A DNA stretch of 64,000 nucleotides from a candidate division WOR-3 bacterium UBA3073. GTDB lineage: Bacteria > Hydrothermota > UBA3073. Location of the stretch: assembly GCA_002366725.1 (NCBI GenBank), contig DFBT01000095.1:4910-68909 (forward strand), written 5' to 3'. This document shows positions 5,307 to 55,070 of this stretch, piece after piece. A model generated the notes under the pieces. It saw nothing but the letters and a program-made list of their open reading frames with translations. It was not told the DNA's origin and did no database searches. Made by a program: the position numbers and the translations under genes. Numbering within the stretch: position 1 is the first letter of the stretch; every line of letters starts with the position of its first letter.

Positions 5307-5452
5307 AAAGCCCCCGTAACAAGATTAAAAATCAAAAATCAAAATGCAAAACTACTGAGGTAAAGGTCTAATTTCTAATGTCAAATGTCTAATCAATGAC
5401 TGACAGTTAGTCATTGGGTCATTGGTCTGTGGTCATTTGGTCATTAGAAATT

Positions 5453-5472
5453 CCTGCCTACCGGTAGGCAGG
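5453..5472. repeat. 20-bp perfect palindrome CCTGCCTACCGGTAGGCAGG
   Basis: Read directly; downstream of def, flanked by TTAGACATT/GTCATTG micro-repeats. Confidence 0.85.
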
Positions 5473-5513
5473 CGTCATTAGACATTTCATTTTGCATTTT
5501 CGAGTTGGTAGCT

Positions 5514-6020
5514 CTACTCCCTTCCCCTCACCTGGAATGCGGGCAGTGTGGGATTATAATTCATGTTGAATTTCAGTAGTGCCTCTTTAGAGAGAAAATC
5601 AATTATCAACTTCCCCTGTAGATGGTCGATTTCATGTTGTATCACCCTTGCAAGGAGGTCTTTCGCCTTGATGTGTATTTCTTTACCCTCTATGTCGCAG
5701 CCTCTGATCTCAATAAGAAAGGGTCTTTTGATTTGGACTGATGCCCCCGGGATGGAGAGACAACCCTCCTCAAATATCTCTTTACCCTTACTTTTGATGA
5801 TTTCGGGATTAACTATGTATAGGGGACCCCGTCCAATATCGACCACAATAATTCTCTCTAAAATGCCGATTTGGGGAGCGGCGAGCCCTATTCCGTCGAG
5901 CCTCTGCATAAACTCTGTCATTGAGGTAGCTATCTTCTGAAGTCTCTCGTCGAATGTCGACACGGGTTTGCTCTTCTCCCTCAATACATGGTCGGGATAT
6001 ATGCGTATCGTTAACTCCAT
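5514..6020 (-). CDS. def: Peptide deformylase
   Basis: Motifs 'GIGLAAPQIG', 'EGCLSIPG', 'QHEIDHLQG'; start probably internal M (MELTIRIYPD), the ORF track extends to 6050. Confidence 0.9.
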   Translation of the reverse strand: MELTIRIYPDHVLREKSKPVSTFDERLQKIATSMTEFMQRLDGIGLAAPQIGILERIIVVDIGRGPLYIVNPEIIKSKGKEIFEEGCLSIPGASVQIKRPFLIEIRGCDIEGKEIHIKAKDLLARVIQHEIDHLQGKLIIDFLSKEALLKFNMNYNPTLPAFQVRGRE

Positions 6021-6249
6021 AAATGCATTTTTTACTGTAGATATAACCACGAAGACACAAAGAGCACAAAGACACCAAAACTAAGAATTGAAGATTGAAG
6101 ATTTTAGATTGTAGATTGCAGTTCGTCATTAGTCCTTTATCCTTTTACCTTTTTCCTTTCCAGTGATTAGCGATGACCGATTACCGATTATCCGCAGGTC
6201 ACAGACTCGTCCGCAGGATCCGTATGGATATGAGATCCGTATGGACTGG

Positions 6250-7959
6250 TTACCGGTTTTGTGTAATACTTATCCCGAGTTCCTTCAGTTTTTCATCTTC
6301 TATCTCCGACGGGACATTCTCCATAAGGCCTGTACCGGTAAGTGTCTTCGGAAATGGAATCACCTCCTGGATCGAATTCTCTCCCGACAATATCATGAGA
6401 AGTCTGTCAAGTCCAATGGCTATCCCTCCGTGTGGTGGCGCACCATAGGTCAGAGCGGAGAGGAAGAATCCGAATTCTCTGTCCCTCTTCTCTTTACTCA
6501 TACCACCTATCTCCATCATCTTTTCCTGCAGGACTCTGTCGTGGATTCTTATGCTGCCCGACCCGAGTTCCGTTCCATTGAGGACGAGGTCGTACTGTTT
6601 CCCGGTCACCTTCGAGGGGTCCACAAAATCATCGGTCTTTGGCATTGTGAATATGTGGTGGCAGGGCATCCAACCGCCCGTTTCCCCATCCCACTCAAAG
6701 AGCGGGAAATCAGTTACCCAGAGCAGCTTGTACTGCTCCTTTGGAGTTTCTCCCACGAGTATCTTATTCCTGACGGCACCGAGGGTCTCGAGACTTCTCT
6801 TCCAATCACCCGCACAGAAGAGTACGGTCTTCTCCCCGCTTATTGAGAGTGCAGATTTCAATTCGCCGGAGAGTTCCGGGGAAAAAAACTTTGCAACATT
6901 ACCCGACAGGGTCTCCCTAAATGACAGATACGAGATTTTGCTGTTGTAGTATTTGAGAGCGAACTCCGAAAGTTCATCGATGTTCTTCCTTGTGAGTGGG
7001 GGGACAGTTATAGCCTTTATGAACTTTGCCTCTTTGAAGATTCTGAACTCACTCTTTTTTGCTATGTCTGTAACATCGGATATATATACATCAAACCTCG
7101 CATCGGGCTTGTCACTTCCGTATTTCTCCATGGCATTTCTGTATGTGAGTCTCTCGAAGGGAGCCCTTATTTTTATACCGAGAATATTTTCAAAGACAGC
7201 ACTTATCATCCCCTCCACAAGATTCATAATATCATCTTCATCCACAAAACTCGCTTCGAGGTCTATCTGTGTATGCTCTGGCTGGCGGTCGGCTCGCTGG
7301 TCCTCGTCTCTGAAACATCGAGCAAATTGAAAGTATCTGTCAACGCCCGCGATCATCAATAGTTGTTTATAAATTTGAGGTGACTGGGCAAGTGAATAGA
7401 ATTTGCCGTTAAAATTTCTCGAGGGCACCACGAAATTTCTTGCCCCCTCTGTGGTTGTGAGCGTGAGATACGGGGTTTCTATTTCGAGAAAATTCCTCTC
7501 TGACAGATAGGTCCTCACGGTGTTAATGAGTTGCGACCTCATCAGGAGTTTTTTCTGCATCGATGGTCTGCGGAGGTCAAGATATCTATACTTCATCCTC
7601 AGCTCATCCTTTGCCGTTATGGGGTCCTTTATCACAAAAGGTGGAACATCGGAGGGGGAAAGAAGTTTCATTTGAGATGCCACCACCTCGATCCCGCCGG
7701 TGTCGAGAGACAGATTTCGCATGCCAGAAGGCCTCTCTCTGACCATTCCCTCAACTTGCACCACATATTCTCCGCCAAATTCACTCGCCTTTTCTATAAG
7801 TTCTGTATTCGCTAAAACCACCTGTGTTACGCCGTATCTATCTCTCAGGGAGATAAAGACCATCTTGCCGTGGTCCCTTATTGCGTCTATCCATCCCTGG
7901 AGTGTCACATTCTCTCCGGAATTTTTCTCTCTCAGTTCTCCGCAGGTATGTGTGCGCAT
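6250..7959 (-). CDS. aspS: Aspartyl-tRNA synthetase
   Basis: N-terminal OB-fold 'MRTHTCGELR', class II aaRS motifs 'FRDEDQRADRQPEHTQID', 'GGIAIGLDRLLM', 569 aa. Confidence 0.95.
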   Translation of the reverse strand: MRTHTCGELREKNSGENVTLQGWIDAIRDHGKMVFISLRDRYGVTQVVLANTELIEKASEFGGEYVVQVEGMVRERPSGMRNLSLDTGGIEVVASQMKLLSPSDVPPFVIKDPITAKDELRMKYRYLDLRRPSMQKKLLMRSQLINTVRTYLSERNFLEIETPYLTLTTTEGARNFVVPSRNFNGKFYSLAQSPQIYKQLLMIAGVDRYFQFARCFRDEDQRADRQPEHTQIDLEASFVDEDDIMNLVEGMISAVFENILGIKIRAPFERLTYRNAMEKYGSDKPDARFDVYISDVTDIAKKSEFRIFKEAKFIKAITVPPLTRKNIDELSEFALKYYNSKISYLSFRETLSGNVAKFFSPELSGELKSALSISGEKTVLFCAGDWKRSLETLGAVRNKILVGETPKEQYKLLWVTDFPLFEWDGETGGWMPCHHIFTMPKTDDFVDPSKVTGKQYDLVLNGTELGSGSIRIHDRVLQEKMMEIGGMSKEKRDREFGFFLSALTYGAPPHGGIAIGLDRLLMILSGENSIQEVIPFPKTLTGTGLMENVPSEIEDEKLKELGISITQNR

Positions 7960-8113
7960 AATAAGCTAAAAAATGGACGCAGATTAACGCAGATGTAATA
8001 AAAAGTTTACTCGTTGGAATTTAAATAATCAGCGTCCCAGAACAGGTCTTTGAAATAAAAAAATCTGTTTTTTATCCGCGTAGATCGGCGTCCCCAAAAA
8101 ATGACTTCAATAT

Positions 8114-8545: not shown

Positions 8546-8599
8546 TATAGATACCTGGGATTGAAAATGCGGAAGAGTCCCGCCATTTTGCTTCTCTTT

Positions 8600-10440: not shown

Positions 10441-10521
10441 AATAAAATGTCTAATTTCTAATGCCGAATGTCTAATCGATGCCTAATTGTTAGTTATTGA
10501 GTAATTAACTAATTAAGTCTC

Positions 10522-10575
10522 CAGTCTGTGGTCTTTGGTCTGTAGTCTGTGGTCTGTAGTCTGTGGTCTGTAGTC
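10522..10575. repeat. Heptad micro-tandem array (TCTGTGG/TCTGTAG)x~7.5
   Basis: 'tctgtggtctttggtctgtagtctgtggtctgtagtctgtggtctgtagtc' between hslV and guaB. Confidence 0.85.
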
Positions 10576-10578
10576 ATT

Positions 10579-12012
<1,434 letters not shown>

Positions 12013-12159
12013 TTATGCGTTAGCCACAGATTTCACAGATTATATCAAAAACAGTAATTGGGTTATTGGGTAATTAAGTAATTAAATCTCCGGTCTTTAG
12101 TCTGTGGTCTTCGGTCTGTAGTCCTTTTATTTCACATTTTGACTTTTGCAATGTGTGTC

Positions 12160-13930: not shown

Positions 13931-14067
13931 AGTTTAACGGGTGAACTTGTGTGCATCAATTGGTATATAAGTATACAACAAAAGTTGCATTTTGTCAAGA
14001 AAAAAGTTAACTCTTTTGTTCCGAGTGGGTGTAAAAGCGGGATATGGTCGAATACAGGTTTTTTGAT

Positions 14068-15462: not shown

Positions 15463-15470
15463 CCCACAAT

Positions 15471-21548: not shown

Positions 21549-21594
21549 CGTATTTTTTTATGACATATTTCATCTAGTTTTATTAGTGATTTTT

Positions 21595-21980: not shown

Positions 21981-21983
21981 TTG

Positions 21984-31612: not shown

Positions 31613-31772
31613 TTCTCATTCAGTATAAAAAATGCCAGGCAGAGGCCTGGCTTAATTGCTGTACTACAGGTATACGCGGGTATACGCCAATAGGTAACTA
31701 TTACTGTAGTTTTCTACCAGGTCGCATACCCTTATGCCCTATAGGCACCCCCGGGTAAAATTGAAAATTAAA

Positions 31773-31792
31773 CCTGCCTGCCGGTAGGCAGG
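31773..31792. repeat. 20-bp palindrome CCTGCCTGCCGGTAGGCAGG
   Basis: Downstream of ftcD, preceded by 'ttgaaaattaaa'. Confidence 0.85.
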
Positions 31793-31918
31793 AATCAAAA
31801 TGCAAAATGAGTTATCTTTCACCTAACACCTATCACCTAAATTATACACCCGATTTTTCAAAATGTCAAGAAAAAAATTATCAGTGAATAGTGAATGCCT
31901 GATAGCCCAATACCCCCA

Positions 31919-33586: not shown

Positions 33587-33987
33587 ACACCCCCCAGGGT
33601 AAAATCAAATATCAAATATCAAAAATTAAAATTGTTATTTTTGGACGCAGATTTACGCTGATACTTTAAGATTATAGAATTATTAAAGCGACGACCTTTA
33701 GAACAGAGTGCTTGCCAAAGCCAGAGTATAACAGAGTAGTGGATACTCTAATTACTTAATAAATTAATTACTATTTTCGTCTGCGCCTTTCTGCGTTTAC
33801 CCCGTTAAATAGAACTGTTTCGAGAACGCTCTGATATTTATCGTTATATTATTTAACGGGGTGAATCTGTCCCGCTTTCTTCGGGATCCCGCCAAAGGCG
33901 GGACGTCCGATTGGTTTTTTATTTTACACCAACTTTTCACTTTTGTCAAGTCTTTTTCAGAAAACATTGATTTTTTTCAAAAAAAAC

Positions 33988-35423: not shown

Positions 35424-35524
35424 GAGAACCACAAAGGCACGAAGAACACGAAGTTCACCAAGAATACGAAGGAAAAAATAAATATAAAATCTTGGTGTCT
35501 TTGTGTCTTGGTGGTGAATGGAGT

Positions 35525-37309
35525 ATGGATAAGAGGAATTTTTGTATAATTGCCCATATAGATCACGGAAAGTCTACCCTTGCCGACAGGATGCTTGAGA
35601 TCACGAATACCATCCCGAGGAGACTTATGAGAGACCAGGTTCTGGATAGGATGGAACTTGAAAGGGAGCACGGGATAACGATAAAGGCGCATCCCATAAG
35701 AATGAGATACAAAGGGTATATATTCAACCTCATAGATACCCCGGGACATGTTGATTTTTCTTACGAGGTGACGAGGAGTCTTGCCGCCTGTGAGGGGGCG
35801 GTTCTGCTCGTAGATGCAGTCCAGGGGGTTCAGGCACAGACTGTGAGTAATCTTTATATGGCACTCGATGCCGGTCTCACAATAATTCCGGTTATAAACA
35901 AGATCGACCTTCCAAATGCTCATATTGACGATGTGAGGGAAGAGTTAATGACCCTCTTGGATACAGAAGAGATACTTCTTATATCGGCAAAGAATGGATG
36001 GGGGGTCGTAGAACTTATGGACGCGATAATAGAGAGAATTCCGCCACCGCGAAGTGAGAGTTCTCACTTACGGGCACTCGTATTCGACTCGTACTACGAT
36101 GAATATAGGGGGGCTATCCCCTATGTAAGGATTATGAGCGGGGATGTAAGTGCCGGGGATGTAATTCGATTTTTTAGAACCGGAAAGAGTTTCGAGGCAC
36201 AGGAAGTAGGTTACTTCTCACCCGACAGGACGAAATCAGAGGTGCTTGAATCGGGGGATGTGGGATACATAATATGCAATATAAGAAACGCGAAGGATAT
36301 AAGGACGGGAGACACCATAGTAAAATCAAAAATCAAAAATCAAATATCAAAAATTGGGACTCAAAATGTGGAGCCTCTCCCGGGCTATCGTGAGGTGACT
36401 CCGTATGTTTACGCCGGGGTATATCCAGCGGACGGTGAGGATTACGATTCGTTAAAGGAGGCGCTCGAGAAACTTGCCCTCACAGATTCAAGTCTTGTTT
36501 TCGAACCAGAGACATCGTCTGCACTTGGATTTGGGTTTAGGTGTGGATTTCTCGGTATGCTTCACAAAAAGGTTATAGAGGAAAGACTGGAGAGAGAGAT
36601 GGGTATCGCCATAGTGTCCACCTCCCCCAATATAAAGTACAGGATTGCTCTCCGTAATGGAAGTAGCACCTGGATCGAGAATCCCGGACAGCTTCCCAAA
36701 CGCACCGAAGTTGAGAACATAGATGAACCGATCGTGAGGGCAAAAATATTCACACCCCCGGAGTATATAGGAAAGATACTTGAGCTTTGCGAAGGGAAAA
36801 GGGGTATACAGAGATCCATTCTTTATCACAGGGAGAATATGGTGGAGATAGAATACGAGATGCCACTCTCCGAGATCATATTTGACTTCTACGACAGCCT
36901 GAAGTCCATATCCTGCGGTTTTGCTTCCCTTGACTATGAATTCATTGACTACAGAACCGGAGATTTTGTGAAGCTCGATATACTGGTCAATGGAAAACAG
37001 GTAGATGCCTTTTCAAGTATAATCCCGAGAGAGAGGGCATACCACGAGGGGGTAAGATTGACGAGAAGGCTGAAAAAGATTATACCGAGACAGTTGTTCG
37101 AGGTTGTGATACAGGCATCCAGTGATGGCAGGATCATAGCGAAGTCGAGGATTGCGCCAATAAGAAAGGATGTGACGGCGAAGTGCTATGGTGGGGATAT
37201 AACCAGAAAGCGTAAATTGCTTGAGAGACAGAAAGAGGGGAAGAAAAAGATGAAACGCATAGGGATGGTTGAGATGCCAAAGGAGGCGTTTCTTGTGGTG
37301 AGAGAATGA
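35525..37309 (+). CDS. lepA: Elongation factor 4 (LepA)
   Basis: 'NFCIIAHIDHGKSTLADRMLE', 'DTPGHVDFSYEV', LepA C-terminal domain; contains 12-aa in-frame insertion encoded by the AAAATCAAAAATC repeat. Confidence 0.95.
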   Translation: MDKRNFCIIAHIDHGKSTLADRMLEITNTIPRRLMRDQVLDRMELEREHGITIKAHPIRMRYKGYIFNLIDTPGHVDFSYEVTRSLAACEGAVLLVDAVQGVQAQTVSNLYMALDAGLTIIPVINKIDLPNAHIDDVREELMTLLDTEEILLISAKNGWGVVELMDAIIERIPPPRSESSHLRALVFDSYYDEYRGAIPYVRIMSGDVSAGDVIRFFRTGKSFEAQEVGYFSPDRTKSEVLESGDVGYIICNIRNAKDIRTGDTIVKSKIKNQISKIGTQNVEPLPGYREVTPYVYAGVYPADGEDYDSLKEALEKLALTDSSLVFEPETSSALGFGFRCGFLGMLHKKVIEERLEREMGIAIVSTSPNIKYRIALRNGSSTWIENPGQLPKRTEVENIDEPIVRAKIFTPPEYIGKILELCEGKRGIQRSILYHRENMVEIEYEMPLSEIIFDFYDSLKSISCGFASLDYEFIDYRTGDFVKLDILVNGKQVDAFSSIIPRERAYHEGVRLTRRLKKIIPRQLFEVVIQASSDGRIIAKSRIAPIRKDVTAKCYGGDITRKRKLLERQKEGKKKMKRIGMVEMPKEAFLVVRE

Positions 37310-38116: not shown

Positions 38117-38292
38117 AGGATAAAGGAAAAAGTAGGAGCGATCTCTACTCTAAAATTATTTTTTAAACATTTCGTAATCTTGTTCTTTAATAGGTTAAAA
38201 GAAGAACATTTGGTAATTAAAAAAAGAAATGAAAAAAATCTTAATAATCAGCGTAAATCTGCGTCCTAAAATAACAATCTTAATTTTTGATT

Positions 38293-38312
38293 CCTGCCTA
38301 CCGGCAGGCAGG
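38293..38312. repeat. 20-bp palindrome CCTGCCTACCGGCAGGCAGG followed by TTTAATTTT
   Basis: Between lepB and grpE; terminator-like. Confidence 0.85.
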
Positions 38313-38335
38313 TTTAATTTTGCTCTGGGGGGTGT

Positions 38336-38816: not shown

Positions 38817-40808
38817 ATGGCAAAGAAAGAGAGGGTAATAGGTATAGACCTTGGAACGACAAATTCCTGTGTTGCTATCGTGGATGGTAGTGAGAGGGTT
38901 GTCATACCCAATCCCGAAGGTGGCAGAACCACACCATCTGTGGTTGCATTTAGTACAAAGACAAAGGAATGGGTTATTGGTCCTTCGGCGAAGAGACAGA
39001 TGATAACAAATCCAGAGAATACGATATATTCCATAAAGAGGTTTATGGGCAGGAGATATAACGAGGTCACAGAGGAGATGAAACTTGTGCCGTATAAGGT
39101 TGCAGAGGGTCCACATAAAGATGCAAGGGTACTTGTTGCCGGCAAGCAGTTTTCACCGCCCGAAATATCTTCTATGATACTCAAATACCTTAAGGAGGCA
39201 GCGGAGGCATATCTCGGAGAGAAGGTCACAAAGGCAGTGGTTACCGTTCCCGCTTATTTCAACGATTCGCAGAGACAGGCAACGAAGGATGCCGGAAAGA
39301 TAGCGGGGCTTGAGCTGCCGAGAATCATAAACGAACCAACCGCCGCATCGCTTGCATACGGTCTCGGTTCCTCAAAGAAACAGAGGGTTGCGGTGTTTGA
39401 CCTGGGTGGCGGAACATTCGATATATCCATCCTGGAGATAGACATGAGAGAGACACCGCCGGTAATTGAGGTTATCGCGGTAAATGGTGATACGCACCTC
39501 GGTGGAGACAATTTTGACCAGCAGATATTGGATTGGATTGCCGATGAGTTCCGAAAAGAACACGGAATCGATTTGAGGAAGGACAAGGCAGCCCTTCAGC
39601 GTATCAGAGATGCCGCAGAGAAGGCAAAATGCGAACTCTCTACGGTTCTTGAGATCGACATCAATCTTCCCTTCGTCACGGCGGACGCATCAGGTCCAAA
39701 GCATCTCGAGATGAAGCTGACGAGGGCGAAACTCGAATCGCTGGTGTCGGATCTACTGGGACGCATGAGACCGCCAACGGAAAGGGCGCTTGAAGATGCA
39801 TCGAAGAAGGCAGGCTCCGGTATAAAGGGCATTGAGGATATAGACGAGGTAGTACTCGTGGGTGGTATGACGAGGATGCCAAAGGTGCAGGAGTTTGTCA
39901 AGGTTTTCTTTGGTAGAGAGCCACACAAGGGTGTAAATCCCGACGAGGTTGTTGCGATCGGCGCGAGCATTATGGGTGATATGCTTTCAACGGGAGAAGA
40001 GGGGAAAAAGGAAGTTCTTCTTTTGGATGTAACCCCACTCACACTTGGTATCGAGACACTTGGAGGGGTTATGACGCCGATAATACCGAGAAATACCACG
40101 ATTCCCACCCGTAAGAGTCAGATATTTACGACTGCACAGGATGGACAAACAGCCGTTACCATACATGTACTTCAGGGAGAACGTCCAATGGCAACGGACA
40201 ATCGCACACTCGGCAGATTTGACCTTATGGGTATTCCCCCCGCTCCGAGGGGAATTCCACAGATTGAGGTTACATTTGATACAGATGCCGATGGAATAAT
40301 GCATGTCTCTGCCAAGGACAAGGCAACGAGCAAGGAGCAATCTATCCGTATAACATCCTCCTCGGGGTTATCCAAGGAAGAGATAGAGAAGATGCAGAAG
40401 GAGGCGAAAGAGCACGAGGCGGAAGATAGGAAGAAAAAGGAGCTGATAGAAGCGAGAAACCAGGCAGATACAGTCATTTATTCGGTAGAGAAGTCATTGA
40501 AGGAATTTGGCGATAAGGTGACGCAGGAGGAGAGAGGTGCCATAGAGAATGCCATCGCATCTTTGAAGAAGGTGAAAAATGGTAATGATACAGAGGCAAT
40601 AAAGAAAGCGATGGACGGGGTGCAAAAGGCATCTTATAAATTGGCTGAAGAGATGTACAAGAAGACGGAGGAGGGTAAGACGGAGGAGGGTAAGACGGAG
40701 GAGGGTAAGACAGAGAAGAAGGAGGAACCCAAAAAGGAGGAAGGTCCACAGGAGGCAGAGTACGAGGTGGTAGATGAGGAAGAGAAGAAGAATGATGAGG
40801 ATAAGTAG
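38817..40808 (+). CDS. dnaK: Chaperone DnaK (Hsp70)
   Basis: '[14 protein letters not shown]', 'DLGGGTFD', '[10 protein letters not shown]'; start at ATG after AAAAGGAGGTGA; C-terminal (KTEEG)x3 repeat. Confidence 0.95.
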
Positions 40809-40923
40809 GGCGTAGGGAGTAGGGCGTAAGGCGTAGGCGATTAAGTAGTAGGCAGTATGCAGTTATCTGTAACCTACAATCCAAAATCTACAATCTATCT
40901 GCATGACCCAATGACTAAATGTT

Positions 40924-42039: not shown

Positions 42040-42080
42040 ACAATTGTAGGAGAATTGAAGAAATAAAAATAACAGGGATT

Positions 42081-42152
42081 GCCTCCCTGTCCATACGGAT
42101 CCGTAGGGACCGGTAGGCAGGGAAGAGAATATATCCATACGGATCCGTAGGG
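42081..42152. repeat. Split palindrome copy with two CCATACGGATCCGTAGGGA modules
   Basis: Downstream of dnaJ. Confidence 0.8.
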
Positions 42153-42221
42153 AAGAGAAAAGAAAAAAAGGACAAAAAATCTCTTCAATCTGCGTTTATC
42201 TGCGTTCTGAAAAAGAGGGAT

Positions 42222-42930: not shown

Positions 42931-43169
42931 AATGAGTGATATCAGTCTCACAAAAAACCTTACATGATGGAGTGCATCAGCTTGCTGATGCAAAACAAAA
43001 TGAGTAGCATGATATGTCGTAAAGAATCAAAAGAAAGTCACTATTGGATCAAGGTGATTTTAATACTGACGAGTCCTGCAAAATAGAAAATCGGGGATGA
43101 ATAATCGCAAGATCCGTATGGACAAGAATAAATTTAACAGGGATTGAAAGAGAACTTAAGAGAAAAAAA

Positions 43170-43213
43170 CCTGTCTACTCTGCCTACCTGCAGGCAGACG
43201 ACAGGTAGATAAG
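43170..43213. repeat. Nested palindrome CCTGTCTAC-TCTGCCTACCTGCAGGCAGA-CGACAGGTAG
   Basis: Downstream of the nucleotidyltransferase gene. Confidence 0.75.
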
Positions 43214-43364
43214 AAATGAAAAAGGAAAATTTCTTTCAATCTCTTTAAATCCCTGTTTGGAAAAGATCGGTGTATATATGTTTATACTTCGCAGGACATT
43301 AAAAAGTAAATCTCTGTGTTCTCTGCGAACTCTGCAGTTAAACTTATGAAGGGAGGTGAAATGG

Positions 43365-43560: not shown

Positions 43561-45804
43561 ATGACCTGTACAGAGAGACTTGAATTTGATAAGGTCATCT
43601 CCTTAATTGCACAGAGGGCGGGTACAAAAAGGGGAAAGCACGCAATAGAAAAGCTCTCCCCGCTCAATGAGGCAGAGGCAATAGAAAGACGATATGCATT
43701 CATAAGGGAAGGTATGGAAATGGAGACACCCCCCTTGTACAGCGAGGAGAATCTGTCGGCTATCCTTACGAACCTCGGGGGGGGTGATACACTCTCACCG
43801 CAGGAACTCCTCGAGGTTGCGGGTTTCCTTGATTTCTTGAGGGAACTTAGGAATTATTTTACAAAGAATGATAGATGGCAATATCTATCATCTCTTGTCT
43901 CTTCGATCTCCATCCTCGCCGAGGAAAAACAGAAGATAACGGCTGTGGTAAAAAAAGATGGAGAGATCATCACCGGGAGGATATTGGAGCTGGAGGAGAA
44001 ACTTGGGGATTCCAGACAAAGGTTAAGAGACAGGCTTGGGAAGGGAGTTACCTTAAGGGGCGGGAGATACGTGATACCCGTGAAAGCGGGGAAGAAAGTA
44101 GACGGAATAGTGCACGATATATCGAGGGGAGGGAGTACTCTCTTCGTCGAACCTACGGACTGCGTCCCCCTCAACAACGAGGTTGAAATTGCGGCGAAGG
44201 GAATTGAACAGGAGAAGAAGAGGGTCTTAAGACAGTTAAACGCGTCCCTCAGTAAGAAACTTCCCGAGCTCAAGCATAACCTCGATGTGCTCGGTGAATA
44301 CGACGCCATCGTAGCGATATCCGATATATCGAGGAGAAAGGGATGGCAGATACCCGAGGTTGGGGATAGATTTTTAAGGATAATCGGGGGCAAACATCCG
44401 CTTCTCCAGTTGAAGAGAGATGTTGTCCCGCTCGATATGGAGATCGGTAGAAAATTTACAACTCTTCTTATAACGGGTCCCAATATGGGAGGAAAGACCG
44501 TTGCGTTGCAGACGGTGGGAATCCTCTCAATTATGGCACAATCGGGTATTCCCGTTCCCGCGTCACCCGATTCTGTCTTTCCCGTCTTTGATGAGATATT
44601 CGTCGATATAGGCGATGAGTCCTCCATAGAGACGGGGGAATCGTCATTCTCATTCCATTTAAAAGAACTGAAACGAATGCAGGACCGTGCCGCGGGGAAG
44701 AGTCTCCTTCTCGTTGATGAGATCGATAGGGGCACAGAACCCGACGGTGGAAGGGCGATCGCCTCCGCATTTCTCGAAGTGTTTACCGGGAAGAATGCCA
44801 TCACCATAGCCACTTCCCATTCCACCGCCCTTAAGTTCTTTGTCGCGGGAGAAGATGGTATGCAGAATGCGAGGATGGAAACTAAAAACGGTGCTCCAAC
44901 ATACAGACTTGGTATTGGATTTCCCGGAGAGTCACTGTGGCTTGAGACCGCGAGGTTCGTTGGAATAGATGATGGACTTCTAAAGAGGGCAGAGGAACTC
45001 GCAGACAAGAATATGCTGAAGACCGAGCACCTCTTAAGAGAACTGGAGGAGGAGAAGGGGAGGGCTTCCGAATTGAAGAGAAAGTTAGAAGAGAGGGAAA
45101 AAAATCTCGAAAATCAACTTGAGAGTGCACAATTGCTGAGGAAGAAATGGGGAGATGGGGTAGAAAGACTTAAAAAAGAGAGGAAAAAAATACTTCTCGA
45201 GGCGAGAAAAAGAGTGGAAAATCTTGTGAGGGAAATAAGGGAGAGCAACGCAAAAAGGGAGAGCATAGTTAGGATAAAGCGGGAGATAGAGCAAGAGTTG
45301 AAACGTGAATTGGGAGGTATGAAAAAGGTTGAAACTGAGAAGAGAGTAAAAAACCATAATTTCAGGGTTGGTGATGCGGCGAGAATTCGCTCGCTGGATG
45401 TTGTGGGAAGGATAATAGTTATCACCGAGAAGAGGATAACTCTACAGGTAGATGATGTGCGGTTTGAGATACCGCCAGAATCCGTCGAACCCGTAGACAA
45501 ACCCCGTGAAGTGAGGGCTGAATCACGACACCATGTGAGATTTGCGAGGAATAGAGAGTTAAAAGGTGAGATAAGTATACGCAACCTCAGGGTCGATGAG
45601 GCAATTCCACAACTCGAGAGATACATTGACGATGTGTGGCTGCTGGGAGAGAGAAATTTCAGGATAGTACACGGTGTGGGAAAGGGTATTTTAAAAAATG
45701 CGGTGTGGGAGTTCCTCTCAAAGGATGACAGGATAGAATCGTTTGAACTCGCTCCTTTAGAGGAGGGAGGCGACGGAGTTACGGTGGGGAAGATCAGATT
45801 GTAG
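43561..45804 (+). CDS. mutS2: Endonuclease MutS2 (MutS domain + C-terminal Smr)
   Basis: Walker A 'ITGPNMGGKTV', 'SFSFHLKELKRM', C-terminal Smr 'IVHGVGKGILK'; 747 aa. Confidence 0.9.
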   Translation: MTCTERLEFDKVISLIAQRAGTKRGKHAIEKLSPLNEAEAIERRYAFIREGMEMETPPLYSEENLSAILTNLGGGDTLSPQELLEVAGFLDFLRELRNYFTKNDRWQYLSSLVSSISILAEEKQKITAVVKKDGEIITGRILELEEKLGDSRQRLRDRLGKGVTLRGGRYVIPVKAGKKVDGIVHDISRGGSTLFVEPTDCVPLNNEVEIAAKGIEQEKKRVLRQLNASLSKKLPELKHNLDVLGEYDAIVAISDISRRKGWQIPEVGDRFLRIIGGKHPLLQLKRDVVPLDMEIGRKFTTLLITGPNMGGKTVALQTVGILSIMAQSGIPVPASPDSVFPVFDEIFVDIGDESSIETGESSFSFHLKELKRMQDRAAGKSLLLVDEIDRGTEPDGGRAIASAFLEVFTGKNAITIATSHSTALKFFVAGEDGMQNARMETKNGAPTYRLGIGFPGESLWLETARFVGIDDGLLKRAEELADKNMLKTEHLLRELEEEKGRASELKRKLEEREKNLENQLESAQLLRKKWGDGVERLKKERKKILLEARKRVENLVREIRESNAKRESIVRIKREIEQELKRELGGMKKVETEKRVKNHNFRVGDAARIRSLDVVGRIIVITEKRITLQVDDVRFEIPPESVEPVDKPREVRAESRHHVRFARNRELKGEISIRNLRVDEAIPQLERYIDDVWLLGERNFRIVHGVGKGILKNAVWEFLSKDDRIESFELAPLEEGGDGVTVGKIRL

Positions 45805-45807
45805 TGA

Positions 45808-45860
45808 GGTGATGGGGTGATGGGGTGATGGGGTGATGGGATGGTGGGTTAATGGGATGA
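45808..45860. repeat. Nonamer tandem (GTGATGGGG)x4 + degenerate units
   Basis: Immediately after mutS2 stop. Confidence 0.8.
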
Positions 45861-45904
45861 TGGGTTTTTGGTAGGAGCGACCTCCTGGTCGCGATAGTGA
45901 TGAA

Positions 45905-46318
45905 TTGATAGGAGAAAAAGTGAAAGAGTATACGAAAAGAAGAAATATTAATCGTGGATATATGAAGTTGGAAGTATGGCAAGATGCAATGGAATTATTC
46001 AAACTTACATCTGGTATAATGTGCGGGACTCCCAATGTAGACTTCAGATTGAGGGGGCAGATTCTTGGTTCTGCTCAATCGATTGCCTCCAATATTGCAG
46101 AGGGATACTGCCGAAGGTCTATTAACGAATATTTATATTTTCTAAATGTTGCACTTGGGTCTTCGGGCGAGGTCATGACCCGTGTAATTGGCGTTAAGCT
46201 TATAGGCCAATTGAGGGAAAAAGATTTTGAGAGCTTTGACGAACTTCATTACAAGGTAGAAAATAAGTTGCTTGCGTTAGTTAAGTCGTTACAAGCAAAG
46301 CGGAGTGATGCGGTGTAG
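45905..46318 (+). CDS. Four-helix-bundle protein (TIGR02436; 23S rRNA intervening-sequence-protein family)
   Basis: 'LEVWQDAMELFKL...LGSAQSIASNIAEGYCR...EYLYFLNVALGSSGEV'; true start may be internal (MKLEVWQ ~45962). Confidence 0.75.
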   Translation: MIGEKVKEYTKRRNINRGYMKLEVWQDAMELFKLTSGIMCGTPNVDFRLRGQILGSAQSIASNIAEGYCRRSINEYLYFLNVALGSSGEVMTRVIGVKLIGQLREKDFESFDELHYKVENKLLALVKSLQAKRSDAV

Positions 46319-46320
46319 TC

Positions 46321-46445
46321 CCCATTGACGCATCAACCCATTAACGCATCAACCCATTAACCCATTAACGCATTAACCCATTAACGCATTAACCCATTAA
46401 CGCATTAACCCGTTAACGCATCAACCCATTAACGCATTAACCCAG
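46321..46445. repeat. 16-bp tandem repeat (CCCATTAACGCATTAA)x~7.5, each unit containing GTTAAC
   Basis: Between the four-helix-bundle gene and dnaG. Confidence 0.9.
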
Positions 46446-46454
46446 TAGTCTCCT

Positions 46455-48104: not shown

Positions 48105-48143
48105 GTAGTTAATTTAAAAATGCCCTTTGAAGGGACTGGAGGG

Positions 48144-49643: not shown

Positions 49644-49716
49644 CACCCGGCACTACCGGTCCGCCCCCGCCGAAGCGGGGCAGACGTCAGGCAAGTTGTC
49701 ATTTTACATTTTGATT

Positions 49717-49736
49717 CCTGCCTGCCGGCAGGCAGG
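49717..49736. repeat. 20-bp perfect palindrome CCTGCCTGCCGGCAGGCAGG
   Basis: Downstream of rpoD, flanked by cattttgatt / tttgattc. Confidence 0.85.
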
Positions 49737-49769
49737 TTTGATTCTTGCATTGTTCAATATGGGGGTGTC

Positions 49770-50216: not shown

Positions 50217-50910
50217 TATGTTCCGACTTATAATTACAGGTGAGGATGAAGGTGCATATAATATGGCAGTGGATTCCGCCATTCTTGAGAAGTTCAAAGA
50301 GGGTAGTACACCCCCAACCATTCGTTTCTTCTGGTTTGCCCCCCCCTGTGTAAGTATTGGCAGGCTTCAGTGTCCGGATACCGTCGACGGTGCGGAATAT
50401 TACCTCGTAAGGAGACCAACCGGCGGAAGGGCTGTGGTGCATGAGGATGACCTCTCGTACAGTATAAGTTGCAAAAGAGATGATTCCGTGTTTGGAGGGA
50501 ATGTACTGCAGACCTATATGAGGTCGTCCCGTATACTCGTAGAAGCGGTGAGACGGCTTGAAATAGACGCTGAGATAGTCAGAACAAGATCGGGTGGTGA
50601 AAGGTCTCCTTTATGCTTTCAATCTAAGAGCAGATACGAAGTCGTAAGCGGTGATAAAAAGATTATAGGAAGTGCCCAGAAGAGGGAAGGCGAGTTCGTT
50701 CTCCTTCAGGGAAGTATTTCTCTCGATGTCGATATGGAGATGGTTATAGACAAATATAGATCGGTTCTCCACGATATGGGCATAGGATATTCGGTGGATA
50801 GTCTTACAGAGGAAGAGAAAACCCTCGCCCTTCTCCATACCCCCATGTTCAGGATAAACAAAATCAAAAATCAAAAATCAAAAATTAGACGTTGTCCCGA
50901 AGTGTTGTGA
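50203..50910 (+). CDS. Lipoate/octanoate-protein ligase family protein (BPL_LplA_LipB catalytic domain)
   Basis: 'RRPTGGRAVVHEDDLSYS' LplA/LipB core; C-terminal 11 aa encoded by the AAAATCAAAAATC repeat. Confidence 0.7.
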   Translation: MRECNMFRLIITGEDEGAYNMAVDSAILEKFKEGSTPPTIRFFWFAPPCVSIGRLQCPDTVDGAEYYLVRRPTGGRAVVHEDDLSYSISCKRDDSVFGGNVLQTYMRSSRILVEAVRRLEIDAEIVRTRSGGERSPLCFQSKSRYEVVSGDKKIIGSAQKREGEFVLLQGSISLDVDMEMVIDKYRSVLHDMGIGYSVDSLTEEEKTLALLHTPMFRINKIKNQKSKIRRCPEVL

Positions 50911-51100
50911 TAACAAAAAAGAGGACACCTGTCATTGCGAGTGAACGAAGTGAACGTGGCAATCTTATCTTTAATATCCCTTATTGCACTCTGTAACGAA
51001 TTCTGTGCAATAAATCCTCTATTGAAATGAAACTTGTTGACATCCAATATAGATAGCTTTGACGAAATCGCAATACTTTGGGACATTCCCCAAAATTAAA

Positions 51101-51141
51101 CCTGCCTGCCGCCTGCCTACCGCAGGCAGGCGGCAGGCAGG
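51101..51141. repeat. Double/nested palindrome CCTGCCTGCCGCCTGCCTACCGCAGGCAGGCGGCAGGCAGG
   Basis: Downstream of the lplA-like gene. Confidence 0.85.
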
Positions 51142-51448
51142 TGCGGTTAATTCTACATAACGGCGACTCATTTTTTATTTGACATTTTGAAAAAAATGTA
51201 GTATAATACAACAGAAGGCAACTTGATTGGTACTGGATATTTTTTCTCTTAAATTTTCTTCAGATCTCTTAAGTTCTCTGTTGATGAAAAGCTTTAAATT
51301 AACAGGGATGGAACGAGAAATGTATGAGATTAAAAAAAAGATAAAAATTCTCTTTCAATCTCTTAAGTTCCCTGTTAAAAAGGAAGTAATCTCTTAAATC
51401 TCTGTTGTTAACTGATAAACTTCAATCAATCTTTTAATCTCTGTGCTC

Positions 51449-51468
51449 CCTGCCTGCCGGCAGGCAGG
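51449..51468. repeat. 20-bp perfect palindrome CCTGCCTGCCGGCAGGCAGG
   Basis: ~50 nt upstream of fabG. Confidence 0.85.
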
Positions 51469-51516
51469 TCTGTGGTTAGATTTTTGACAATGCCTGATGC
51501 TGAATGAGGAGGATAT

Positions 51517-52306: not shown

Positions 52307-52316
52307 TATACCCCAA

Positions 52317-52356
52317 TATCCCTCGGATGCAGACTGCATTCCGAGGGATATTTTAT
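52317..52356 (+). terminator. Rho-independent terminator hairpin after tRNA-His
   Basis: 'ATCCCTCGGAtgcagactgcaTTCCGAGGGAT' stem followed by ATTTTATTC. Confidence 0.6.
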
Positions 52357-52376
52357 TCAAAATTTAGCCCGTCTAC

Positions 52377-52396
52377 CCTGCCTGACGGCAGGCAGG
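52377..52396. repeat. Palindrome variant CCTGCCTGACGGCAGGCAGG
   Basis: Downstream of tRNA-His and its terminator. Confidence 0.85.
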
Positions 52397-52725
52397 CGAT
52401 ATGTAGAAAAGTATGTTTAAATCTGCCCTGCGTGTCTCTTGTGGGGTATGCAAGTTGAGAAATGGGTATGGAGTGCATTACCTTGTCCATATCCATCTTA
52501 AGATCCGTATGGATACGGATCTCATACGAGTCCGCGACCTATGGACGGACTCTGTGAGGTAATGCAAAATAGCGGGGCAAATGTAACGCTAGGCTTCAGC
52601 CTTACCAATGAAGCGATACCGTTTGGAATGAAATGTAGTTTGGTTGGGCGCTGTCTTCGGTGAGCCTTCGGCGAGCTCAGCCGAGCCGCTCAGCCGAACC
52701 GTTTACAGTGCCAATAATTTTTTTC

Positions 52726-52754
52726 TTGACAATGCGCACTTTTTGATGTATAAT
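52726..52754 (+). promoter_or_regulatory. Consensus sigma70 promoter of mazEF (TTGACA-17-TATAAT)
   Basis: Perfect -35/-10 hexamers with 17-nt spacer, 20 nt upstream of AGGAGGTGA RBS. Confidence 0.6.
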
Positions 52755-52774
52755 TTATACAGGAGGTGATAAGC

Positions 52775-53343: not shown

Positions 53344-53391
53344 GGGGATTACGGGGTCGTTAAAACAAAAATTACATTTTTATTTCTTTTC

Positions 53392-53490
53392 TTGACTTTT
53401 TATGAAATTGACTGTATAATATAGAAAGAGGATAGTTGGCAGCAAGAAGCTGAAATTTAAAATTAAAGACCTGACCCCATTTACCAACTG
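53392..53490 (+). promoter_or_regulatory. Promoter (TTGACT-17-TATAAT) plus ~65-nt conserved leader, copy 1 (upstream of AlbA_2 gene)
   Basis: Leader 'agaaagaggatagttggcagcaagaagctgaaatttaaaattaaagacctgacccca' about 90% identical to 55271-55335. Confidence 0.55.
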
Positions 53491-53531
53491 GAGGAGGGGA
53501 ACGCCAGATTAACGAAGGAGATTTTTGGTTA

Positions 53532-55022
53532 ATGGCACTACCGTTAAATATCGATAAGTTGATCAACGGTTCAGTTATGGAGTGGGAACGCCTTGAATTC
53601 AAGAAGGGATGGAATCCTGAAGATGTTATTCACGCCATTTGTGCGTTTGCCAACGATATCCATAACTGGGGCGGTGGGTATGTCATTCTGGGAGTTGAGG
53701 AAAGGAATGGCAGACCTGTTTTACCACCAAGTGGGTTAGAGCCCAATCAACTGGATAAAATTCAAAATGAACTCATTGGTCTTTTTCATAAACTGGACCC
53801 CTACTATTTGCCGGTGGTTCAACCAGAGATTTATCAGGATAAACATATTTTGATCCTCTGGGTATATGGCGGCGATGAGCGTCCCTATAAAGCACCGATG
53901 TCACTTGGTGATAGAAGCTCTAAAGCAATTTACATCAGACGAGGTTCTCAAACATGCAAAGCCAATCAAACAGAAGAACGACAACTGCGGGAAATCGCTG
54001 TCAGAATTCCTTTTGATGATAGAATAAATCATCACGCAGATGTTAAAGATTTAAATCTTGCCAATATTCAGGCGTTTCTGAAAGAGGTAGAGAGCGATTT
54101 ATATGAAGAGTCAACACAAATTCCTTTTACCGAATTGTGTGAACAAATGAAGATTGTCCAAGGGCCAACAGAATATTTGAGACCGGTTAATATTGGCTTG
54201 CTGATGTTCAGCGATCATCCTGAAGAATACTTTGTTGGGGCAGGAATCGATGTAGTGATCTACCAAGATGAAATCGGCGACCATTTTACAGAAAAAACCT
54301 TCACAGGACCGATTCACCAGCAATTGCGCGATGCATTGCATTATGTAAAGACAACCGTCATTAGAGAGGAAGTTCAAAAGGTTCCTGGACAGGCAGAAGT
54401 GTTGCGATTTTACAATTATCCCTACGAAGCCGTAGAAGAAGCACTTGCTAATGCCGTATACCACCGCGGTTATGAACATCAGAATCGAATTGAAGTAAAT
54501 GTTCGTCTGGATTGCATAGAAATTTTGAGTTATCCCGGTCCCCTCCCCCCGGTGGACGCCAAAGCACTGAAAAAGAGACGAATCGTAGCACGGAATTACC
54601 GAAATCGGCGTATCGGCGATTTTTTGAAGGAACTGGACCTGACGGAAGGCAGGGCTACTGGCTTCCCAAAAATCTATAAGGCAATGGGAGTCAACCGCTC
54701 ACCGCCGCCGGAGTTTACTACCGACTCGGACAGAAACTATTTCTTGACCGTTTTGAAGAAACATCCGTTGTCCCAAGTAGTGTCCCAAGAGCTGTCCCAA
54801 GTTGAAGAAGGATTAAGTGAACAAGCTATAAAGATTCTTGGGTTCTGTAGGATAGCAAGGAAAAGACAGGAGATACTGGTCTATATTGGTTTGTCAAATC
54901 ATCCTGATAACTACAAACGCCATATTAAACCTCTTATAGAAAGTGGTAAATTGGAGCTGACGATACCTGACAAACCAAAACATCGAAATCAGAAGTATCG
55001 AACACGAAAGAGGAACATATAA
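53532..55022 (+). CDS. AlbA_2 (Schlafen-like divergent AAA_4) + HATPase_c_4 + C-terminal wHTH putative nucleic-acid-binding regulator
   Basis: N-term '[41 protein letters not shown]' AlbA_2 signature; central ATPase-like region; C-terminal HTH; 496 aa. Confidence 0.7.
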
Positions 55023-55026
55023 GAAA

Positions 55027-55070
55027 ACGTATAAGAATGCGTATAAGAATGCGTATAAGAAAGCGATATA
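55027..55070. repeat. 12-bp tandem (GCGTATAAGAAT)x~3.5
   Basis: Immediately after AlbA_2 gene stop. Confidence 0.8.

Follow-up and report, generated by a model that had tools for sequence, protein, structure and literature searches.

The short tandemly repeated repetitive (STRR) sequences, reportedly described by Mazel et al. in 1990, are heptamers of heterocystous cyanobacteria, and the small dispersed repeats (SDRs, 21 to 27 nt) of Nostoc punctiforme, which Elhai et al. are said to have reported in 2008, are hairpin-forming, embedded in heptamer arrays, self-nested, and polymorphic among related genomes. SDRs are reportedly confined, in essence, to one cyanobacterial subgroup. PMC2670836 mentions the STRRs, and PMC3116915 cites the SDR study (Genome Res 18:1484). 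The Rickettsia palindromic elements (RPEs), which Ogata et al. are said to have reported in 2000, are tolerated inside protein-coding and RNA genes. Here, we describe a 64-kb stretch of the genome of the candidate division WOR-3 bacterium UBA3073 (contig DFBT01000095.1; referred to as the window), the spacers of which contain STRR-like arrays with SDR-like mini-palindromes, among which a 20-nt palindrome, denoted HP1, is the clearest case.

Beyond these systems, TAACTGA direct repeats occur in marine Beggiatoaceae and in some cyanobacteria and Bacteroidetes (MacGregor 2015, PMC4679880). The hairpins of the window also resemble REP, BIME, and REPIN sequences, which are short, over-represented extragenic palindromes forming mosaics with other motifs (Bertels and Rainey 2011, PMC3116915). 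Insertion into hairpin loops has precedents; for example, IS1397 inserts into palindromic units, according to work cited in PMC3116915.

RESULTS

Tandem arrays and shared words in the spacers

The gene map, constructed from Pfam scans of the open reading frames (ORFs) in the window, has a dense housekeeping content and includes 27 spacers of ≥30 bp (6,640 bp in total); the window counts cover 64 kb of one genome. TRF arrays occupy 16.5% of the intergenic DNA compared to 0.93% of the coding DNA. The spacers hold 32 arrays (1,069 bp), 19 of which have a period of 7, 8, or a multiple thereof, whereas 200 dinucleotide-preserving shuffles yielded 46 ± 30 bp in 2.0 ± 1.3 arrays (maximum, 6), that is, the real coverage is ∼23-fold higher. 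Different spacers share 136 12-mers, versus 5.2 ± 3.1 in the shuffles (∼26-fold), and 77 14-mers, versus 0.4, and the shared words group into 27 families. The intergenic arrays include 11 of period 7 and 6 of period 8. Arrays are found in at least 14 different spacers, and units recur in 2 to 4 spacers within the window.

Syntenic contigs from relatives were reached through homologs of IMPDH (L083, 88% identical and close to Candidatus Stahlbacteria; L089, 86%; L086, L087, and L088, 81%) and of MutS2 (L211, 76%; L212, 74%). The window and the relatives together contain 26 period-7 and 19 period-8 arrays. The density of these arrays is 10.1 bp/kb in the window and 18.4 bp/kb in the relatives, versus 0.85 bp/kb in a control set of 1.21 Mb of IMPDH neighborhoods from 80 unrelated bacteria (IMPDH ≤60% identical). 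Among the control loci, the highest period-7/8 densities (6 to 12 bp/kb at a loose threshold) belong mostly to contigs of Thermoanaerobaculia and Acidobacteriota (L032, L045, L038, and L080), a hint that heptamer arrays may be common in these bacteria too.

A first-pass annotation of the window, made from the letters alone, had described spacers built from recurring short words. This observation is confirmed: all the motifs it listed are where it placed them, within a few bases, the arrays are enriched in the intergenic DNA of the window, and the words recur between spacers more often than in the shuffles. The arrays themselves are present but not clean, being degenerate (72 to 94% matches), with exact arrays of at least 3 copies rare, and the feature, which had been taken to start at 5307, also includes the spacer at 4179-4459. 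Furthermore, the lexicon has four layers, namely, tandem arrays, small hairpins, larger modules, and ordinary signals; the last comprise the promoters, ribosome-binding words, and terminator-like hairpins.

The window corresponds, in reverse complement, to a segment of the 69.8-kb contig NOZQ01000003.1 (assembly GCA_002245405.1), and the source record of its MutS2 is "candidate division WOR-3 bacterium JGI_Cruoil_03_44_89," a member of the Santa Barbara oil-seep genome set representing a deep lineage near WOR-3/TA06 that had not been reported before (PMC6786971). In the Logan (L082 and L216), ENA (L214), and JGI (L215) assemblies, the spacers are base-for-base identical to those of the window, and the sole difference between the window and L214 over 19.9 kb is one 15-nt unit inside dnaK. 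Because independent assemblies give identical spacers, the repeats are not an assembly artefact. The dnaK unit belongs to an in-frame 15-nt repeat (AAGACGGAGGAGGGT, x3.6) at the 3' end of the gene (40662-40715), which encodes part of the DnaK C-terminal tail and differs by exactly one unit between the window and L214, from the same population.

Comparison of the arrays with STRRs and TAACTGA repeats

The arrays share with STRRs the intergenic location of 7-nt tandem repeats, the many unit families, the few to ∼10 copies, and the frequent capacity for hairpins with inverted arrays; the units of the window are likewise arranged head to tail, and the arrays are non-coding and dispersed over many loci. 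The GTCATTKG array at 5410-5445 is a (CAATGAC)n/(GACCAAT)n array, and (CAATGAC)n is a rotation of the STRR2 unit TTGGTCA read on the other strand. The same unit is a rotation of the (GACCAAT)n repeat at recO of Nostoc PCC 7120 (bioRxiv 10.1101/2022.06.06.494920) and has the same sense relative to the gene. Unlike in STRRs, octamers are as common as heptamers, the units are degenerate, and the host is a non-photosynthetic member of candidate division WOR-3. HIP1 is not enriched in the window. Since the host is not a heterocystous cyanobacterium, the feature is classified as STRR-like rather than as STRR proper.

The TAACTGA repeats are the nearest non-cyanobacterial precedent. Like the arrays in the window, they are intergenic, read in the sense direction, located near start codons, and patchily distributed, suggesting horizontal spread, and they have no obvious link to gene function. 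In L089, a (GTCAACT/GTTAACT)x5 array ends in TAACTGA just before hslV. However, one heptamer dominates in Beggiatoa, where related heptamers are rarely repeated, whereas dozens of units are found in the window, none of them dominant, and the arrays are combined with hairpin elements. Two further classes were considered and rejected. Contingency-locus repeats, which mediate phase variation, do not fit degenerate arrays that flank housekeeping genes (rplM, def, aspS, guaB, dnaK, and dnaG), and a CRISPR array does not fit contiguous 7- to 16-mers without unique spacers in a window where the Pfam scans detected no cas domains. No report of STRR- or SDR-like architecture in WOR-3 or Patescibacteria was met in the literature, in which no search was aimed at these taxa.

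Filled, empty, and nested sites of HP1

HP1 is a perfect 20-nt palindrome (CCTGCCTRCCGGYAGGCAGG) with a predicted stem of 7 to 8 bp, or 19 bp if nested. The window contains 7 contiguous copies within 3 mismatches, versus 0.01 expected, in addition to a nested pair and a loop-interrupted copy. The hairpin elements, of roughly 20 nt, fall into about four families; besides HP1, there are HP2 (CTACCTGTCGGTAGACAGG), HP3 (GGAGTGCATCAGCTTGCTGATGCA), HP4, which is built from GATCCGTATGGA (9 copies of GATCCGTATGGA versus 0.32 expected), and the REP-like hairpin GGTAGGAGCGACCTCCTGGTCGCGA.

The presence and absence of HP1 were directly observed at three pairs of sites. In the def>rplM spacer, the site is filled in L089 (TTTGCATTTTGATA[HP1]TTTGATTTTTAATCT) and empty in the window (TTTGCATTTTGAT-TTTTGATTTTTAATCT), with one flanking base also differing. 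Upstream of ptsN, the window has ...ACATTTTGATT[HP1]TTTGATTCTTGCATTGTT where L211 has ...ACATCTCGATT-TTTAATTCTTGCATTGTT, so that exactly 20 nt are extra in the window. The third pair is paralogous, with the leader of grpE filled and that of the formiminotransferase-cyclodeaminase (FTCD) gene empty. No target duplication was seen at these three pairs. In our reading, these differences would reflect insertion of HP1 rather than precise deletion.

Nested copies of HP1 were detected in the window, L211, L134, L135, L139, and L141, and in L211, HP1 lies within HP2 as well as HP2 within HP1. When HP1 is removed in silico, 11 of 87 copies leave a junction that carries on a period-7/8 array (null, 0.5; maximum, 4), and 7 of the 87 have flanks that add 6 bp or more to the stem (null, 1.1; maximum, 4). 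The window copies at 5453, 31773, 38293, and 49717 are embedded in heptamer arrays.

In its described behavior, HP1 thus resembles an SDR: it is a hairpin of ∼20 nt that occurs in heptamer arrays, is self-nested, and has filled and empty sites. Unlike SDRs, HP1 is a perfect 20-nt palindrome and is found in WOR-3, Patescibacteria, contigs of 31 to 71% GC, and viral contigs. The window does include a REP-like hairpin with a GTAG head (GGTAGGAGCGACCTCCTGGTCGCGA, 45870-45894), but HP1 occurs singly or nested rather than as inverted doublets and lacks a conserved 5' GTAG head; the assignment to REPINs mobilized by RAYTs was rejected on the doublet structure. REP families, moreover, are normally species specific, whereas HP1 is found across phyla, and there is no RAYT gene among the Pfam-scanned ORFs of the window. 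The likeness to RPEs consists in HP1 forming the variable arm of a tRNA-Met, in HP1 within a PurH-like ORF, and in a heptamer array within lepA; the difference is that RPEs are 100 to 150 bp long and restricted to Rickettsia, whereas HP1 is 20 nt long and broadly distributed. None of the papers searched contains the HP1 sequence.

HP1 outside the lineage

HP1 was detected in at least 120 metagenome stretches; 80 loci examined span GC contents of 0.31 to 0.71, and Candidatus Moranbacteria and another Patescibacteria genome are among the metagenome matches listed. Among the viral contigs of IMG/VR, 48 stretches contain HP1, compared to 0, 2, and 0 for three composition-matched control palindromes. 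The HP1-bearing contigs are ∼7-fold enriched in heptamer arrays. However, just 2 to 3 exact units are common to the lexicon of the window and the arrays of HP1-bearing metagenome contigs, which indicates that the lexicon is lineage specific, although HP1 is not.

Some of the distant copies lie in tRNA genes or fragments of them. HP1 is the 20-nt variable arm of a predicted tRNA-Met(CAT) (L248, 2239-2330), and it occurs in tRNA-like D-loop/T-loop sequence of viral and metagenome contigs (L219, ∼8570-8660; L259, ∼490-560; L148, ∼320-380). In another metagenome contig (L152), HP1 appears to code for LPAGRQ within an ORF that reads as PurH-like. Since the sites of HP1 are loops and repeat arrays, its insertion may be directed by structure or by single strands.

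A possible, though tentative, reading of these data is that HP1, which is seen in phage or prophage contigs as well as in WOR-3, Patescibacteria, and high-GC bacteria, is a non-coding 20-nt mobile palindrome that crosses phyla. Through the action of an enzyme, it would spread into heptamer arrays and into single-stranded loops, namely, those of other hairpins, its own, and the D, variable, and T loops of tRNAs.

Turnover of arrays among relatives and strains

The orthologous spacers of L083, L089, L086, L211, and L212 contain the same words in other numbers, orders, and places; among those kept are TAATGAC, ATTAGAC, NAAAGAC, AAAGGAT, CAATCTA, TAATTAC/TAATAAC, GCGTAAG, TCTTTGTG, and CCCATTAAC. 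These relatives come from other sites (groundwater and other sediments) but share the same architecture. For example, the aspS>def spacer is 229 nt long in the window and 58 nt in L083, where the AAAGGAW core alone is present, and the EIIA>aspS spacer of L083 is a 19-unit YTAATNAC array. Between mutS2 and dnaG, L212 has 43 nt of AATCTRY heptamers, whereas the window and L211 have a PF05635 gene and inverted octamer arrays.

Single-unit length changes were observed between L086 and L087 (99.8% identity over 17.2 kb), which differ by two indels, one unit of (GGGAGACA) and one of (AAGGATA), from a period-8 and a period-7 array. Such single-unit indels between near-identical strains are the signature of slippage, the process that the first-pass annotation had offered as one explanation. 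Its other proposal, small mobile or recombining modules, agrees with the presence/absence and nesting of HP1 and with the modules of ∼85 to 100 nt that recur in non-orthologous spacers. Conversely, the suggestion of a process peculiar to this lineage does not hold, given the similar arrays in cyanobacteria, Beggiatoaceae, and some Bacteroidetes (PMC4679880) and the occurrence of HP1 in Patescibacteria and viral contigs. Altogether, its interpretation is partly supported.

Orientation, RNA structure, and ordinary signals

The shared words are oriented with respect to transcription. Among the 12-mers common to the minus- and plus-strand gene halves of the window, 88 are same-sense and 32 antisense, and 15 lexicon heptamers occur in the relatives' spacers 65 times in sense and 18 times in antisense. 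In the sense of the flanking genes, the array units are (CTACAGAC/CACAGAC)n, (ATTAGAC)n, (CAATGAC)n, (TAATCGG)n, (AAAGGAW)n, (CAATCTA)n, (TCTTTGTG)n, (YTAATNAC)n, (GTAGGGC)n, (GGTGATGG)n, (CCCATTAACGCATTAA)n, (TGATTTT)n, and (GCGTATAAGAAW)n. This single orientation relative to the transcript implies either that selection acting on the RNA filters the elements or that a strand-specific process creates them. No cluster of DnaA boxes is present at the 33.6- to 34.1-kb divergence point, and transcription- and replication-linked orientation are therefore inseparable here. At 33587-34120, the gene direction diverges, the GC and AT skews change sign, and a strong promoter and several hairpins are found; this segment may be a replication origin or a mere strand switch.

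In some spacers, the presence of an array together with its inverse leads to a long hairpin fold, as in the def>rplM spacer (z = -5.1). Likewise, the arrays of the panC>lepA spacer pair into a long hairpin (-31.1 kcal/mol; z = -5.2). The composite element that precedes rpsU has arms surrounding an HP2-like palindrome in which an HP1-like one is nested (43170-43209), and the predicted fold of 43125-43265 reaches -47.2 kcal/mol (z = -7.5). Pure array RNA is unstructured, as in the guaB>hslV spacer (sense strand, z = +0.09). The Rfam scan detected tRNA-His only; hence, no spacer belongs to a known RNA family.

The ordinary signals include six TTGACA-N17-TATAAT consensus promoters with a T-rich (TTTTTTC) upstream tract, each pointing toward the gene that follows it, and G-rich ribosome-binding words that are also common to spacers. 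HP1 at 38293 and 49717 (after rpoD) fits the intrinsic-terminator consensus, these being the best sites in the consensus scan, whereas other copies have no T-run; the resemblance arises because the surrounding TTTTGAT array supplies the T-run. Some elements may have been co-opted as terminator-like hairpins or unstructured leaders.

Layout of the spacers and neighboring genes

The coordinates of the individual features are given in Table 1. The minus-strand genes extend up to 33586 (rpsI, rplM, def, aspS, hslUV, guaB, a polysaccharide cluster, and FTCD), and the plus-strand genes begin at 34121 (folK, panC, lepA, lepB, grpE, dnaK, dnaJ, rpsU, mutS2, dnaG, rpoD, ptsN, lipB, fabG, tRNA-His, and mazEF), followed from 55.8 kb by a low-GC helicase/methylase island. 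Two larger modules recur in these spacers, namely, M1 (∼90 nt), which precedes both guaB and the UDP-glucose dehydrogenase gene, and M2 (∼85 nt), a leader common to FTCD and grpE that is inverted in genome orientation. In addition, AACAGGGATTGAAAGAGAA inverted-repeat elements are present at 43133-43260 and 51299-51376.

TABLE 1 Arrays, hairpins, modules, and ordinary signals in the window, by position
Feature	Position	Strand	Remarks
rpsI>UDP-glucose dehydrogenase spacer	4179..4459	-	3' half conserved in L083
Octamer array AATTAGGT x3.5	4244-4271	-	Module M1, ∼4215-4300
Hairpin HP2 CTACCTGTCGGTAGACAGG	4272-4290	-	
GATCCGTATGGA	4356-4367	-	
Loop-interrupted HP1 copy	4385-4424	-	
def>rplM spacer	5307..5513	-	RNA fold z = -5.1
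Array AAAAATC	5327-5351	-	
Array GTCTAAT x4	5366-5393	-	
Array GTCATTKG x4.8	5410-5445	-	
HP1	5453-5472	-	Within TCTAATGAC repeat
Empty HP1 site TTTGCATTTTGAT-TTTTGATTTTTAATCT		-	def>rplM spacer; filled counterpart in L089
aspS>def spacer	6021..6249	-	Four successive arrays
Array CACAAAGA	6048-6075	-	
Array ATTGAAG	6087-6118	-	
Array TCCTTTT	6133-6159	-	
Array GATTACC	6165-6190	-	
GATCCGTATGGA, two times	6217-6245	-	
EIIA>aspS spacer	7960..8113	-	CGCAGATTAACGC / GGACGCTGATTATT words; period 9-10 "TAATCTGCGT" family
guaB>hslV spacer	10441..10578	-	
Array AATGTCT x4.4	10446-10476	-	
AT-rich octamer block	∼10480-10522	-	
Array GTCTGTR x7.4	10516-10575	-	Adjoins guaB stop codon
OmpA>guaB spacer	12004..12159	-	Module M1 = CACAGATTATATCAAAAACAGTAATT, then GTAATTGG array
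Array GTAATTGG x3.8	12054-12085	-	
Array GTCTKYR	12092-12123	-	
Consensus promoter TTGACA-N17-TATACT	13970..13998	-	TTTTTTC upstream tract; ordinary signal in shared-word set; conserved in L083
FTCD>Wzy spacer	31613..31918	-	
HP1	31773-31792	-	(NATTTTN) heptamer context
Array CACCTAA x3	31820-31840	-	
Consensus promoter	31841-31869	-	
FTCD 5' leader, module M2	33587..33670	-	CGCAGATTTACGC word; ribosome-binding word ACACCCCCCAG; inverted paralog of 38243-38335, without HP1 (empty site)
Array (AAAATCA) x4.4	33601-33631	-	
panC>lepA spacer	35424..35527	+	
Array CACGAAGAA x3.8	35438-35471	+	
Inverted array TCTTGGTG x3	35490-35513	+	
Array (AAAATCA) x4.7	36322..36354	+	Within lepA coding sequence; 9-residue insertion versus Aquifex LepA
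lepB>grpE spacer	38117..38335	+	
Array ATAAAGG x2.9	38113-38132	+	
Module M2	38243-38335	+	
HP1	38293-38312	+	In TTTTGAT array of M2, 13 nt before the G-rich ribosome-binding word located immediately ahead of the grpE start
dnaK>dnaJ spacer	40805..40923	+	
Array GTAGGGC x4.7-8.4	40805-40863	+	Overlaps stop codon
Array CTACAAT x3.4	40874-40897	+	
CCAATGAC	40903-40918	+	
Spacer downstream of dnaJ	42040..42221	+	AACAGGGATTG
HP4, 20-nt palindrome TCCATACGGATCCGTAGGGA	42090-42109, 42134-42153	+	
Half HP1	42105-42121	+	
ATCTGCGTTT x1.9	42188-42206	+	
Composite inverted-repeat element upstream of rpsU	43108..43265	+	Arms AACAGGGATTGAAAGAGAACTTAAGAGA and complement
mutS2>IVS-protein spacer	45801..45904	+	
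Array GGTGATGG x7.1	45801-45864	+	
REP-like hairpin GGTAGGAGCGACCTCCTGGTCGCGA	45870-45894	+	
IVS-protein>dnaG spacer	46319..46454	+	(CCCATTAACGCATTAA) x7.6 = octamer CCCATTAA x15.5; inverse of upstream GGTTAATGGG units
rpoD>ptsN spacer	49644..49769	+	
HP1	49717-49736	+	In CATTTTGATT-TTTGATT context; orthologous L211 site empty
Array (AAAATCA) x3.7	50860..50885	+	3' end of lipB ORF
lipB>fabG spacer	50911..51516	+	Fold z = -8.3
GTCATTGCGAG motif	50931-50941	+	
HP1 nested in HP1	51101-51141	+	
Consensus promoter	51179-51207	+	
TCTCTTAAGT / AACAGGGAT inverted-repeat element	51240-51376	+	
HP1	51449-51468	+	
tRNA-His>mazE spacer	52307..52774	+	
HP1 variant	52377-52396	+	
HP3 word GGAGTGCAT	52470-52485	+	
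Palindrome GATCCGTATGGATACGGATC	52502-52521	+	
Arrays	52655-52701	+	tRNA-His>mazE spacer
Consensus promoter	52726-52754	+	
Array (GCGTATAAGAAW) x4.8	55018..55075	+	Starts within stop-codon region of AlbA_2 gene

Several features adjacent to the repeats were recorded as well. The array within lepA codes for KSKIKNQ-type residues. In the lipB>fabG spacer, GTCATTGCGAG begins a GTCATTGCGAG...GCAATC element, and in two unrelated metagenome contigs (L115 and L117), GTCATTGCGAG directly adjoins HP1, which suggests that it is another widely dispersed small element. The PF05635 gene ("23S rRNA intervening sequence protein," an Avd-like four-helix bundle; 45905-46318) between mutS2 and dnaG is flanked by mutually inverted octamer arrays (45801-45864 and 46321-46444), with the GTAG hairpin before the gene. 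It is present in the window and in L211 (6896-7405) and absent from L212 (2501-2543), and thus looks like an inserted or deleted cassette.

The OmpA-family/CarboxypepD_reg gene (12160-13930, minus strand) is a single 589-residue ORF in L083, whereas in the window, a frameshift near 13081 yields overlapping ORFs of 349 and 320 residues; the Logan assembly is identical at this point, and the frameshift therefore marks a genuine pseudogene or, alternatively, reflects a consensus error common to both assemblies. The 435-bp "spacer" at 21549-21983, between two glycosyltransferase genes, contains two DegT-type aminotransferase fragments, 54 to 59% identical to residues 2 to 136 of an intact paralog, and is a gene remnant rather than true intergenic DNA. 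Finally, the low-GC segment (31 to 38%) at 55784-64000, which has few heptamer arrays, encodes a weak HEPN-like protein match, a PLD-SNF2 helicase (1,060 amino acids), and an Eco57I/MmeI-type methyltransferase (1,076 amino acids) whose specificity domain is TaqI-like, and is probably a defense island. Upstream of it are an AlbA_2/Fic-like gene, mazEF, and a nucleotidyltransferase gene next to an ORF of 77 residues.

DISCUSSION

We consider it probable that the spacers are mosaics produced by two sequence-generating processes acting over ordinary expression signals. Degenerate tandem arrays of 7 to 8 nt would arise and change length by slipped-strand mispairing, with fast turnover between species. 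Hairpin families of ∼20 nt, with HP1 as the clearest case, would insert into the arrays as well as into one another and into loops of other hairpins; the target would be single-stranded or looped nucleic acid. Larger blocks combining arrays and hairpins, such as the ∼90-nt guaB/UDP-glucose dehydrogenase block and the ∼85-nt FTCD/grpE leader, would be copied between spacers, possibly spread by recombination. The responsible agent might be an enzyme, for instance, a RAYT- or IS200/IS605-type Y1/HUH transposase, or the route might be RNA mediated. Several observations weigh against this scenario. The k-mer counts are not independent events, and the filled and empty HP1 sites equally fit precise deletion of the palindrome between short T-runs. 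No transposase, reverse transcriptase, or RAYT-like gene was detected among the Pfam-scanned ORFs of the 64-kb window. HP2 and HP4 hardly occur in viral contigs (1 and 0 stretches, respectively), so that the breadth of HP1 cannot be generalized to the other hairpins. The comparison of copy number between strains, which the first-pass annotation had proposed, did reveal unit-length changes, but these are three in all, and the four oil-seep assemblies show no variation in any heptamer array; arrays that are degenerate and invariant within this population imply that slippage is slow, or old. Furthermore, the orientation bias would also fit selection for function, as would the persistence of words in species whose IMPDH is 81 to 88% identical.

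The latter two observations point to the main alternative, which we regard as unlikely overall: the words would be a functional cis-regulatory vocabulary, and the arrays multi-site mRNA or DNA platforms kept by selection and bound by one or a few proteins, such as S1-, Csp-, or CsrA-like RNA binders or a nucleoid protein. Under this alternative, the strand bias relative to transcription, the lack of structure in pure array RNA, and the retention of the same words in relatives would all be expected, as would the location of arrays next to start or stop codons (10576, 40805, 45801, and 55018) and of (AGGATAA)n directly before the hslV start in L086 and L087. There is also experimental precedent in Nostoc PCC 7120, where (GACYAAT)x8 lies at the recO start and deletion of heptamer repeats changed reporter output (bioRxiv 10.1101/2022.06.06.494920), and a post-transcriptional role has been proposed for the TAACTGA repeats (PMC4679880). 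However, the units number in the dozens and have no common core, the flanking genes are unrelated housekeeping genes, one array resides inside lepA as a 9-residue insertion, and whole arrays have been gained or lost at orthologous spacers, as in aspS>def of L083 and mutS2>dnaG of L212. Nor is the idea that heptamers provide stops in all three frames significant (20 of 48 arrays in sense versus 14.8 ± 2.9 permuted). It is far less probable still that promoters, ribosome-binding sites, and intrinsic terminators, alike through common machinery, would account for the lexicon. The six promoters with the same upstream tract, the common G-rich words, and the two terminator-like copies of HP1 are of this kind, but such signals explain few of the 27 word families and none of the 32 tandem arrays. 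Terminators normally do not have an identical 20-nt stem, nesting, or occurrences in tRNA genes and across phyla, and the HP1 copy at 38293 sits upstream of the ribosome-binding word of the very gene it precedes. Ordinary signals are thus refuted as a complete explanation and hold for the promoter and ribosome-binding words. As for an assembly or chimeric artefact, a concern raised at the outset, or a chance product of AT-rich, low-complexity spacers, the sequence does come from a metagenome-assembled genome, and misassembly typically occurs at short repeats, but the agreement of four independent assemblies, the shared architecture of relatives from other sites, and the shortfall of the shuffles in array coverage and shared 12-mers leave this explanation a negligible probability.

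Within the favored scenario of arrays and inserting hairpins, the safest reading, based on sequence comparison, is that the elements would be selfish or neutral sequence, filtered and occasionally co-opted at the RNA level. Heptamer arrays with embedded tiny hairpins have been an unexplained phenomenon, met for the most part in filamentous cyanobacteria and otherwise in Bacteroidetes and a few giant sulfur bacteria; the same architecture, along with one identical heptamer, in an uncultured WOR-3 lineage indicates that it is not tied to cyanobacterial biology. Because such elements create terminator-like hairpins, leader insertions, an in-frame peptide in lepA, and extra tRNA arms, they should be masked or modeled in the annotation of promoters, small RNAs, and small ORFs in candidate-phylum genomes. 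The occurrence of HP1 in Patescibacteria and viral contigs offers a handle for phylogenetic profiling toward the responsible enzyme. If HP1 does cross phyla as a mobile palindrome, few known mobile DNA elements would be as small or as widely distributed, and STRR-type heptamer arrays would be a general landing pad rather than a cyanobacterial oddity.

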